Assembly: GCA_944358405.1 (NCBI GenBank)
Contig: CALVQX010000030.1
Location: 1 to 55,352, forward strand
DNA: 55,352 bases
Reading direction: 5' to 3'
Source of the DNA: an uncultured Bacilli bacterium
Lineage (GTDB): Bacteria > Bacillota_I > Bacilli_A > RF39 > UBA660
How positions within the stretch are numbered: position 1 is the stretch's first letter; each line of letters opens with the position of its first letter. The position numbers and the translations under genes are program-made. The notes beneath the pieces are model-generated. The model worked only from the letters and a program-made list of their open reading frames with translations. It searched no databases and was not told the DNA's origin. Shown piece after piece: positions 37,736-41,429 of this stretch.

Positions 37736-38218
37736 CTATGGTCCTGTAGGTCCCGTAGCTCCTGTAGGTCCTGTTGGTCCCGTAGCACCGGTAGGTCCGG
37801 TAACTGTGCTGGCTGCTCCTGTAGGTCCCGTAGCTCCCGTAGGTCCTGTTGCTCCCGTAGCACCGGTAGGCCCTGTCACACCGGTAGCACCAGTAGGTCC
37901 CGTAGCTCCTGTAGGTCCTGTTGCTCCCGTAGGTCCTGCTACTGTACTAGCAGCTCCCGTAGGTCCAGTAGCACCAGTTGCCCCAGTAGGTCCGGTAGCA
38001 CCAGTTGCACCAGTGGTTCCGGTAGGTCCCGTTGGTCCAGCTGGAATTGTTAAGTTTAGTATAAAATTTGGTGATGTTCCCGTAATTGATGCTGTCGCTC
38101 CGGTTCCTGGAGCTCCCGTAGAAACTGTACCAATTGCTAGATTTGGTGCACTTCCTGTTGCTCCTGTTGCCCCACTAGGTCCCGTTGCTCCTGTAGGTCC
38201 GGTAGCACCAGTTGCTCC
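37736..38218 (-). CDS. 3' segment of split BclA-like collagen (GXT) gene
   Basis: GAT/GPT repeats begin abruptly at the 10-bp core; no RBS; ends GPTGP-stop. Confidence 0.88.
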
Positions 38219-38237
38219 TAGTCTATAAACCACAGAA
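38209..38237. other. Left attachment junction of the intervening element (core plus P-type arm)
   Basis: CAGTTGCTCC core, then TAGTCT-ATAAACCACAGAA, inverted relative to the arm at 41397-41421. Confidence 0.88.
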
Positions 38238-38240
38238 TTT

Positions 38241-40214
38241 TTAGATATTCCAAAAAATTGTAATAGCTCTTTGGTTGTTTTTTATTTTACCTACAGTTAT
38301 CTTATTAATAAATTCATTTACTATTTCTTGTGTTAGGATGTCTTGTTGTTGATAGGAGAAGAATTCTTTTTTCTTTTCATTTATTTGTGATGTTTCTAAT
38401 TCATTTTTTATTACTTCTAATCTTTCTTTTAATCTGAATGCCTTTTCTTTGTATTGTGTTTTTAAAAGTAGAAATTCTTCTTTATCTAATATTCCTTGAA
38501 TTTTATCCTCATATAATTTTTTTAATATGTTTTCATTTGCTTTCATTTGTTTTTGTATTTCTTGTTGTTCTATTTTTATTTCTTGATTTTGATTTTTCTT
38601 TCTTTTTTTCTCTTGATATTTTTTTTCTAATAGATCATGATCATAGTATTTATTTAATAATTGATTAAATTCTTGTAAAATATATTCTTGTAATATATCT
38701 AAGTTGATTGCTTTTTGATTATCACAATTTTTCCACTTATTTTGTTTATCTTTACATAATAGGTATTCTGTTTTTTGATGATTAGAGTAACTGCAATTTT
38801 TATGAAGAATATTTCCACAACAAGCACAATATGCTTTTCCATGGAAGATATGTTTTTTCCCTGTTTTTTGTGCACGACTTTTTTCTTTTAATTTTTCTTG
38901 AATTAAGTTCCAAGTTTTATCATCAAAAATTTTTTCAATTGCTTTTTCTTTTACTACCCAATCTTCTGAGGATGTTTTTATACATTTATGATTTTTATAA
39001 CTAATTCTTTTGGTTTTCCCTTGGATTAAAGTACCATTATAGCTTTTGTCTTTCATCATATGATAAATTGTTTTGCCATTCCAACGATATTTTTTTCTAA
39101 TATTGCAAGAACAAATTATTATTTTATTTGATTGTGTAATTATTTGATAAGTAATTTTTTCTTTATTTTCTAGTAAAGTTAGTTCTAATTCAAATTCTAT
39201 TCTTGCTTGTGGTGGTAAATTTTTAATATTACTAGCAAGGAACCAGACGTTTTTAGGAAGTGTTTTATTATCTTCTATTTTGATCCAAGTATTTTCTTTG
39301 AAGTTTAATTTTTTTTCATTTTCTATATCTTTTTTTGTAGTATAAAATAGTTCTATGTTTTCTGGAATAGAAAGAATTTTGATTTTTATTTTTTTATTTG
39401 GGGGTTTTATTTTATGAAGTGATTTTATTTGCTGAATTTTTTTTGCTTGTTCGTTTTTTAAGGATATTCTTACGATATAAGTACCGGTTTTATTTATATT
39501 GATTTTTTCTTTTGTGATCGGTAATTGTAATTTACAACCATTCATTTGTTTATATTCGTAAGGACAAGGAATTTTTTCTTCTTCTAATATGGTCGCAATT
39601 TTTTCTTGTCCATATCCTGCTAGAATTAAGGAAGCTATCTTTTTTAATACTTTACTAGCTATTGGATCAATTAAAAGATGATTTTTATTTTTTGGATCTT
39701 TTAATAGTCCATATTTGGCAAAAGCTGCAGTTGATTCTCCAGCTTTCCATTTTGATCTTAGGGTTGCTTTGATATTATCTGATAAATCTTCTAAAAACCA
39801 TTCATTCACTAAGGCATTGATTTGACGTTGCTTTTTATTTTCTTTTCTTGTGGTATCAGTATGATCTGTAAGACTGATAAAGCGTATGTTCCATTCTATA
39901 AATTTATTATGTAAATATTTTTCTATTGTTTCTATATCTCTAGAAAATCTGGATTGACTTTTACACAGAATAATATCTATCTTTCCATTTTCACAATCCT
40001 TTATCATTTTTTCAAAATCTGGGCGATATGTTCCTATTCCAGAAAAATCTTCATCACAATAGATGGAGGTTACTTTCCAATCCGGATGTTTTTGTACTTC
40101 TTCTAAAAGCATCTGTTTTTGATTTTTTATACTTTCACTAACCATTGTTCCGGCTTCTTTTTCTATATCTTCTTTCGATAATCTTAAATATAGAACAGTT
40201 CTTTTTATGTTCAT
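38241..40214 (-). CDS. Large serine recombinase (SpoIVCA/TnpX-like) with internal insertion
   Basis: YLRLS catalytic motif, DEDFSG...[18 protein letters not shown]...C...C zinc ribbon, coiled coil, I.I.W C-terminus. Confidence 0.95.
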
Positions 40215-40348
40215 TGTTCTTTTTTATTTTCTTCTGTTCTTAGAATCGTTTTTAATAATTTGCCGTTGAATCTTTTTTTTCGTTCTTCTTCGGTAATGTT
40301 TTCATTATGCCATTGATTTATGATATTATAATTTATTTTTTGCTTCAT
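40211..40348 (-). CDS. 45-aa ORF coupled to the recombinase (candidate directionality factor)
   Basis: [58 protein letters not shown] overlap with the recombinase start; absent from the ORF track. Confidence 0.75.
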   Translation of the reverse strand: MKQKINYNIINQWHNENITEEERKKRFNGKLLKTILRTEENKKEQ

Positions 40349-40365
40349 ATTATCCCTCCTAAAGA

Positions 40366-40421
40366 CACTATATTCTTTTTTAACTTTCGTTATTAATAAT
40401 TTGTTTTTTCTCTCATATAGT
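40366..40421. promoter_or_regulatory. Putative divergent sigmaE/K-type promoters
   Basis: CATATAGT (+, 40414-40421) and AATATAGT (-) on either side of the palindrome TTATTAATAA (40390-40399). Confidence 0.4.
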
Positions 40422-40441
40422 GGAATAGGAGGTTTTCATTT

Positions 40442-41368
40442 ATGAATGTTATCGATCGAGAGTTTCAAGAATTGGTTTCTGAAATTAAGGAATTGAGCAA
40501 GATGGAGATATATTATCGAATTAGAAAAAGTTTTGATGCTATTCCTGAAGAAACAAAGATGAGCTGTAGTAATTTTTTTAATCAATTTGGATATTGGGGG
40601 AGATTAGATGTTTTTTCTTCAAATTATGAAGAAATCGAATTAAAAGCGGAAGCTTTATATGAACATATTGATGATTTTGCTTGGCTTTATGATCAATTAG
40701 GAGATTATCGTTCTAAACGAACATTATATGCTATTTTAAATAATTGGTATCGTTATGATTTTGATACTACTTCTCAAACGAGAGAGTATTTGTATGATGA
40801 TTATTTTGATTTAGATTTGGTTTCTTGTGATTCTAATGAAGTGATTGTGGATTTGGGAGCATATACCGGGGATACTGTTGTTTCTTATCTTCATAATTAT
40901 GGGGAAGATTGCTATAAAAAAATATATTGTTATGAAATTACGCCTGCTGTTTTTGAATTATTACAGGAAAATTTAAAAAATTATGCTAATATTGATTGTC
41001 GTCTTCTGGGAGTAGGGGATCAGGAAGAACAGTTATCTTTGATTTCTAATGAAGTTAGTGCTTCGGCTAATACTTTAAGAAAAGATCTTTGTAATGATGT
41101 GATCATGACTACTTTGGATGTGGATATTGATGATGCAATTACTTTGATTAAAGCTGATATTGAAGGATTTGAATATAAAGCTTTACAAGGTGCTAGAAAT
41201 CATATTTTGAAAGACCATCCTAAATTATTAATTTCTGTTTATCATAATAATGAAGATTTATGGAGAATTCCTAAAATGATTCGAGAACTTTCTAGTGATT
41301 ATCGTTTTTATTTACGTTATCGTAGTTCCCCAATTTATCCAACAGAAATTACTTTCTTGGCTATTTAA
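40442..41368 (+). CDS. FkbM family methyltransferase
   Basis: [26 protein letters not shown]....PKL.ISVYH. Confidence 0.92.
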
Positions 41369-41371
41369 ACT

Positions 41372-41400
41372 TATATAGACGCGTGTCTATATATTTTTTT
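41372..41400 (+). terminator. FkbM terminator
   Basis: TATATAGAC-GCGT-GTCTATATA followed by T7. Confidence 0.8.
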
Positions 41401-41429
41401 GTGGTTTATTTCGTGGGAGCAGTTGCTCC
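41397..41429. other. Right attachment junction (P-type arm plus core)
   Basis: TTTTGTGGTTTAT-TTCGTG-GGAGCA-GT-TGCTCC. Confidence 0.88.

Follow-up and report, generated by a model that had tools for sequence, protein, structure and literature searches.

A candidate 3.2-kb serine recombinase element within a collagen-like gene of an uncultured Bacilli bacterium

What is the stretch of 3.2 kb that separates the two halves of a collagen-like gene on contig CALVQX010000030.1 of an uncultured Bacilli bacterium (GenBank assembly GCA_944358405.1), and could the gene be made whole again? The contig, analysed over its full length of 55,352 nucleotides, is called the window here, and the genome that holds it G000. 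The intervening DNA encodes a large serine recombinase (LSR), a 45-residue protein, and a methyltransferase (Table 1), and it appears to be an integrated mini-element of non-phage type that is mobilised by its own LSR and lies in frame inside a gene for a collagen-like protein of 288 residues. Legible in the sequence are the anatomy of the element, the symmetry of attP (the attachment site formed by its joined ends), the in-frame restoration of the gene, an intact LSR, and a module and crossover register that are conserved in relatives. When the DNA is cut at a central GT, positions 41813-41424 joined to 38212-37736 give a single in-frame open reading frame (ORF) of 288 codons, and since the ends of the element form the predicted recombination site, its exact removal would rebuild the collagen-like gene. 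We consider the anatomy, the attachment (att) sites, and the GT crossover well supported and very probably right.

Table 1. Position of the element, its predicted att sites, and the genes in and around it (window coordinates)
Feature	Position	Strand	Remarks
Element, 3,211 bp (GT counted once)	38213..41423	.	GC 0.264 versus 0.301 for the genome
Predicted attL, 52 bp	38186..38237	.	Host B arm 38186-38210, crossover GT 38211-38212, element P' arm 38213-38237
Predicted attR, 52 bp	41397..41448	.	Element P arm 41397-41421, crossover GT 41422-41423, host B' arm 41424-41448
10-bp core CAGTTGCTCC, left copy	38209..38218	+	Direct repeat at junction
10-bp core CAGTTGCTCC, right copy	41420..41429	+	Direct repeat at junction
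LSR, 657 aa	38241..40214	-	Beta-rich insert ~237-374; DUF4368-like C-terminus
Conserved 45-aa ORF, candidate recombination directionality factor	40214..40348	-	Stop overlaps recombinase ATG (ATGA)
Cargo: FkbM-family methyltransferase, 308 aa	40442..41368	+	PF05050; TIGR01444, 54.7 bits versus 37.7 cut-off
Split collagen-like gene, 5' part, 130 codons	41424..41813	-	Collagen PF01391, 30.7 bits versus 27.2 cut-off
Split collagen-like gene, 3' part, 158 codons + stop	37736..38212	-	Collagen PF01391, 49.4 bits

The ends of the element carry the argument. If 41397-41423 are joined to 38213-38237, a 52-mer attP results in which 19/25 arm positions are dyad-symmetric around the GT, with a perfect inner 6-bp repeat and an outer inverted repeat that matches at 12 of 13 positions, both equally spaced around the GT; the two repeats and the 10-bp core had been claimed in the original prediction, and each was confirmed. 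The P' arm has its inner limit (38237) 4 nt short of the recombinase stop codon. When window positions 2-6 kb apart were joined at random 200,000 times, no join reached 19/25 (the maximum was 18, once), and shuffling of one attP arm gave P = 5e-6 for the symmetry. The layout claimed beforehand, that of an attP of the large serine integrase type, thus stands, and the 52-mer has what characterises such sites: a length of about 50 bp, arms that form an imperfect inverted repeat, a dinucleotide at the centre that is not palindromic, and an adjacent integrase gene. The GC content of the element lies at the 4th percentile among 3.2-kb windows of the genome.

On either side of the recombinase gene, collagen repeats yield 411 eight-mer direct-repeat pairs, and such DNA is a frequent breakpoint of metagenome contigs, both of which would suit a chance similarity or an assembly chimera. 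We hold this explanation to be extremely unlikely. The best symmetric centre among the pairs is that at 38211/41422 (GT), with a symmetry above all the random joins, and the same architecture is found in homologous elements. Furthermore, both junctions are bridged by contigs from three other studies (X4, records 19 and 24; X7, records 26 and 31; X13, record 9), and attL and attR that are bridged in independent contigs are no artefact of assembly.

The gene that is split encodes a collagen-like GXY tract, and GGAGCAAC is present 7 times within it. Neither half matches BclA_C (PF18573), and the protein ends in GXY repeats; compared with BclA-type proteins, it has the collagen-like tract and is devoid of the C-terminal BclA_C (C1q-like) domain. 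The split gene of one relative, L046, shows a weak BclA_C match below the threshold (19.1 bits versus 38). One strain, in run X4, has an 18-nt insertion at window position 37739 that amounts to two GXY-type triplet sets, i.e., a variation in repeat number within the collagen gene.

Judged by its domains and residues, the LSR is an intact large serine recombinase. Its matches to Resolvase (PF00239, E = 1.6e-21), Recombinase (PF07508, 37.1 bits), and Zn_ribbon_recom (PF13408, 27.2 bits) all exceed the respective cut-offs, and Y9, R11, the catalytic S13, R64, R89, and R92 as well as the zinc-ribbon cysteines C463, C466, C487, and C497 do not vary among 15 aligned homologues. Its DUF4368 match (21.1 bits) falls under the 25-bit cut-off, and many of the roughly 1,800 LSR homologues carry precomputed matches to PF14287. 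The AlphaFold model (mean pLDDT 73.4) places in order a catalytic domain, the long helix E, the beta-rich insert, the zinc ribbon, a helical hairpin (526-615) with long helices at 526-572 and 578-615, and a small C-terminal sheet. This model matches full-length serine-integrase structures from cryo-electron microscopy (E = 1e-17), and the PhiC31, Bxb1, and LI integrases are also matched; the solved complexes found for comparison are 4kis, 9iu2, 9rah, and 9dxh. By sequence, only the catalytic domain finds solved chains, namely the recombinase of a C. difficile conjugative transposon, TnpX, and TP901-1 (3g13, 2mhc, and 3bvp). The insert of about 135 residues is modelled with a pLDDT of ~80-87 and is missing from relatives of ~540 residues; it might read the collagen-type target. 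The FkbM-family methyltransferase gene is divergent from that of the LSR, and there are no transfer or phage genes among the genes of the element.

The original prediction had spoken of a complete integrase/att set. That set had left out the likely directionality factor, the 45-residue ORF just upstream of the LSR. With a hidden Markov model (HMM) of this ORF, a copy was detected just upstream of the LSR in 15 of the 16 clade members, the sixteenth being masked, and a weaker copy at 5 loci of the ~540-residue recombinase class. In 13 aligned copies F27, N28, I35, and E39 are invariant. The genome of the window contains no second copy according to the HMM search. It has at least four further large serine recombinase loci, on contigs C21, C24, C50, and C60 with several in a row on C50, and no small ORF was detectable there with the HMM. 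Searching the Atlas with the small ORF returned a cluster of the annotation 'hypothetical protein' only.

How might so small a protein act? The complex of the small ORF product with LSR residues 436-657 was predicted in three runs, with ipSAE interface scores of 0.76, 0.77, and 0.76, the best of three controls reaching 0.00. In a calibration of the ipSAE mark, it was attained by 58 of the 80 complexes with solved structures and by 2 of the 110 mismatched pairs, counts that hold only roughly since our own alignments were used. Contacts agreed by at least 96% between runs, the pLDDT of the partner was at least 80, and the LSR residues predicted to be in contact (507-536 and 617-657) map to the base of the helical hairpin. 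According to one report (PMC12286644), this is the place at which known recombination directionality factors (RDFs) are predicted to bind their LSRs, and the model supports the view that the 45-residue protein binds the LSR where directionality factors do. As to its expression, a sigma-70 promoter scan gave 14 sites versus 22.3 expected. Motifs of the type CATA-N3-TA upstream of the small ORF (L050, L052, and L055) and of the collagen gene match only a sigma-K consensus and were given no weight; upstream of the small ORF in the window's own element there is none. Also, L050, L051, and L054 share a conserved palindrome, GAACTAT-(1-4 nt)-ATAGTTC followed by a T run, that precedes the small ORF by about 30-40 nt and may be an operator or a terminator.

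Is this arrangement peculiar to the window? In a set of 201 genomes of the family including G000, each from a different genus so that no close relatives are among them, LSR matches at E <= 1e-40 occur in 43 genomes (G000 counted), and places of the full-length type number 17 in 14 genomes, the window included. The 16 full-length-type places examined in detail, to which the truncated L061 was added, have LSRs that are for the most part ~40% identical to that of the window, the two closest being 56% identical. In 13 of the 16 the junction could be set by eye, and each of these has the end of its P arm 29-38 nt past the LSR stop, with ...GCA (or CCA, ACA, GAT) followed by AC, or by GT in three oppositely inserted elements. 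Applying a strict rule of at least four GXY triplets within 150 nt beyond the junction, the DNA beyond the P arm is collagen-like in 8 of the 16 and not collagen in 4; L054 and L047 are borderline, and at L050 and L056 the contigs end. Those two contigs (G109:C41 and G109:C25), from a genome with six recombinase matches, stop exactly after the ...CAAC of the recombinase-proximal junction; the assembly graph would branch at these ends if excised or second copies were present.

Two relatives with both ends in hand locate the crossover. L049, an element of 4,202 bp, has arms symmetric at 22/26 positions (next best 15) and a direct repeat of CAAC only, and its ORF, once restored, is clearly orthologous to the collagen-like protein of the window, though interrupted at a different point. 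L051 has 16/26 symmetric arms and a direct repeat of AC only, and joining its ends restores a nine-residue GPTGPQGxx period exactly. Since an AC read on the recombinase strand corresponds to GT on the plus strand of the window, these short repeats pin the crossover at the GT that had been predicted at 38211-38212 and 41422-41423, in the same register. In-frame restoration is precise in all three elements for which both ends are available (window, L049, and L051). Simple symmetry searches for the far ends of 10 other elements did not find them, owing to contig ends or weaker dyads.

Further relatives vary the theme. The two closest share an outer P-arm motif, TGTGG, at equal distance from the centre, and more distant relatives on viral contigs have an uninterrupted 52-mer with 19/25 symmetry that lies 25 nt (L079 and L080) or 98 nt (L078) after the LSR stop. 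The cargo differs, consisting of two NUDIX genes and a kinase in one relative and two ASCH genes and a GNAT in another; the FkbM cargo was sought in the loci of the relatives and not found. The smallest relatives seem to have little beyond the small ORF and the LSR (L059, with ambiguous boundaries). In L057 (G166:C2, 10016-11840), whose LSR is 39% identical, a gene for a MacB-like ABC ATPase/FtsX protein is split at PT|GALD; the DNA at the insertion resembles collagen codons, and the cargo includes a sortase-like ORF. Insertion points that differ within orthologous genes point to repeated mobility and not to one inherited insertion.

How could the gene be restored? LSR dimers would bind attL and attR, and the co-translated 45-residue protein, seated at the base of the LSR coiled coil, would license attL x attR synapsis. 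Each site would be cleaved at the GT dinucleotide, which reads AC on the recombinase strand, after which subunits would rotate and the ends would be rejoined. The expected products are a 3,211-bp circle bearing the symmetric 52-bp attP and a chromosome with attB in which the collagen-like gene is whole. If the 45-residue protein is absent, the LSR would catalyse integration by attP x attB, with collagen-codon DNA of the type GGAGCAACTGG as its target. That catalysis takes place, what the small protein does, and when excision happens are all points that we infer.

Several points weigh against reading the locus as a mobile element of this kind. To begin with, we infer, and do not observe, that the element is active. 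In contigs of runs X4, X7, X11, and X13 there is no clean empty-site or circle junction; since contigs are prone to drop rare variants, this speaks neither for nor against excision. One candidate, a joint from 38213 to 41425 in X7 that might have been attB, has 12 extra letters and a 23-nt side, and is read as another collagen gene. The restored attB does have the predicted pattern AGGTCC-N8-CA-GT-TG-N8-GGACCT, with a symmetry of 12/25, but this value is matched or beaten by 49 of the 815 windows into which the collagen gene was divided for comparison, and the dyad is therefore at background level; the symmetry of attB is real yet uninformative, and it was rejected as evidence. A possible inward shift of the outer motif between attP and attB, a match of 3 nt only, was likewise discarded. 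Within the window any dinucleotide of the core is possible, because the same 10 bp at both ends do not fix the crossover, and the placement at GT rests on symmetry and on two homologous elements whose LSRs are ~40% identical. The small ORF falls into no family of Pfam, PHROGs, or NCBIfam, and the complex prediction expresses the confidence of a model and is no measurement. Finally, 9 of 12 distinct strain differences in the LSR are residue-changing, and one of these, G642D, alters a position that is the same in all 15 homologues; depths are low, and the count leaves out three rows (39928-39933) that come from a contig with a 77-nt match only.

This ratio of 9:3 between residue-changing and silent differences hints at relaxed constraint in some strains and, with the change at the invariant glycine, would agree with a fossil in which the insertion is fixed, excision is lost, and the collagen-like gene is a pseudogene. 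Such an outcome seems improbable to us. The LSR and the small ORF are open, the invariant catalytic and zinc residues are all present, the arms retain their 19/25 symmetry and the core repeat is perfect, both halves of the collagen gene are open and in frame, and among the strains covering the att sites no difference is listed within either of them.

If the element is a mobile one, when would it leave the gene? Our preferred guess, a tentative one that falls short of being probable, is the sporulating mother cell: the element would be kept in the germ line and excised only there, and the collagen-like spore-surface protein would be made at that time. Skin, SPbeta, vfbin, yin, and gin are elements that are excised in the mother cell during sporulation. 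The host, an assembly of 1.32 Mb that is 90% complete, has the endospore-former markers Spo0A (Spo0A_C), SpoIVA, and a small acid-soluble protein (SASP) as well as an uninterrupted sigK-like gene, and CotJB and CotJC are encoded elsewhere within the window; a search of this 90%-complete genome for SpoVAC did not find it. The split gene stands among spore-envelope-type genes, i.e., for a protein with five LysM domains, a SpoIID-like protein, and a GT2-TPR glycosyltransferase, and in two further genera the split collagen gene is likewise flanked by orthologues of the latter. Excision in the mother cell would also suit an element that is free of transfer and phage genes and whose RDF-like ORF is translationally coupled to the LSR, a coupling that would favour the excision mode. 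The gin element, with its GirC recombinase and the 42-residue GirX, is a precedent (PMC5595907). However, no convincing sporulation-sigma promoter was found upstream of the small ORF in the window, the collagen-like protein has no BclA_C domain, and relatives of the clade split other genes, such as that for the MacB-like ABC ATPase of L057 at PT|GALD. Cargo that varies among relatives, and insertion points that shift within orthologous genes, indicative of repeated mobility, also speak against this developmental reading.

Those same features would be expected of an ordinary multi-targeting LSR element of the DUF4368 type, for which a short motif frequent in collagen codons serves as target, the gene is simply knocked out, and excision serves transfer only. 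We regard this, too, as less likely than not, and as only slightly less likely than the developmental reading. The LSR has the DUF4368-like C-terminus and its homologues the PF14287 matches mentioned above, and DUF4368 marks a multi-targeting, TndX-like LSR clade, as stated by Durrant et al. (2022, PMC10083194). Targets differ in position and gene across the clade, GGAGCAAC recurs in the split gene, and a search of public metagenomes for the empty site (23-nt B arm plus core) yielded exact matches in 15 contigs, all with unrelated collagen-like genes and none representing the orthologous locus. In contrast, the element has no transfer functions and its smallest relatives seem to have barely more than two genes, at least 8 of the 14 assessable clade members lie inside collagen-like genes of spore-formers, and precise in-frame restoration is kept wherever both ends are available.

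To which known systems is the element related? It comes closest to gene-intervening elements that are not phages, for example gin in gerE. In PMC5595907, gin of Bacillus cereus ATCC 10987 is described as having 31 genes, three recombinases, and att sites with an imperfect inverted repeat and a 9-bp core, and its sporulation-specific excision is shown. Like gin, the window element splits a coding gene of a spore-former, combines an LSR with a very small directionality protein (a candidate here) that has no known motif, and has att sites in which an imperfect inverted repeat frames a short core common to both, the crossover being predicted at the centre of an attP-type dyad. In contrast to gin, it has three genes in 3.2 kb and a collagen-like target instead of gerE, its small ORF is unrelated to GirX in the searches run and abuts the recombinase gene, and the sporulation-specific excision that is shown for gin is a hypothesis for this element. 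Excision by an LSR and an RDF also rebuilds a mother-cell gene in the case of skin (sigK) and of SPbeta (spsM, with SprA/SprB), as reported (PMC5499854, PMC5025042, and PMC4191935), and spsM, like the split gene of the window, concerns the spore surface. Whereas skin and SPbeta are described there as prophages or their remnants, with tens of kb, the window element is small, and the sigK-like gene of its genome is uninterrupted.

The likeness to the DUF4368 clade, as that clade is described in PMC10083194, extends to a DUF4368-like C-terminal segment, to several insertion sites with a common motif, and to the catalytic domain, which in the window LSR is nearest to the C. difficile conjugative-transposon recombinase and TnpX. 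Multi-targeting of this kind fits the varied insertion points, the MacB-like ABC ATPase target, and the variable cargo. The window's protein differs in a DUF4368 match that stays under the Pfam cut-off and in its beta-rich insert, and the targets found here are mostly of one gene class. With canonical serine integrases (A118/LI, Bxb1, and PhiC31) it has in common an attP of ~50 bp in which two arms of ~25 bp form an imperfect inverted repeat with a non-palindromic dinucleotide at its centre, an attB of lower symmetry, an integrase gene beside attP, and a fold that matches over the full length; in contrast, sequence identity to them is 10-17% only, and attB of the window lies in repetitive coding DNA. 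Our search of the literature found no description of serine recombinases in collagen-like genes, but the supplementary tables of PMC10083194 may already list the family and its att sites.

In the wider neighbourhood, the GT2-TPR glycosyltransferase gene stands beside the split collagen-like gene in three genera (window, 34689-35762; L049, 10328-11404; L054, 6609-7739), the proteins being 61-67% identical, and this adjacency suggests a conserved glycosylation partner of the collagen-like protein. Elsewhere in the window there are a sortase gene that adjoins one for a surface protein of 1,599 residues containing nine Cna_B repeats as well as a VWA domain (2876-8613) and a restriction-modification cluster (13951-17231) of an N6/N4 methylase, a D12-class adenine methylase, and an AlwI-family endonuclease. 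The same DNA is present in chicken-gut, faecal, and dust metagenomes from nine studies.

The locus offers a compact candidate toolkit that consists of a recombinase, a 52-bp attP, an attB, a defined crossover, and a likely 45-residue directionality factor, with natural variants in at least 14 genomes. It would extend the gene-interrupting elements of spore genes to a new target class, the collagen-like spore-surface genes, by an element that is among the smallest of its kind, in uncultured animal-gut spore-formers with genomes of ~1.3 Mb, and it suggests a testable link between programmed DNA rearrangement and the make-up of the spore surface. A bolder idea, which we consider rather unlikely, is that widespread cassettes of 2.3-4.2 kb, composed of the small directionality protein and the LSR with the beta-rich insert, have been domesticated as a developmental switch by gut spore-formers with small genomes. 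If so, collagen-like spore-surface genes would stay interrupted by such cassettes in the germ line, to be rebuilt only in the mother cell, and by re-entry at several collagen-codon sites the surface gene that is silenced would vary between lineages.

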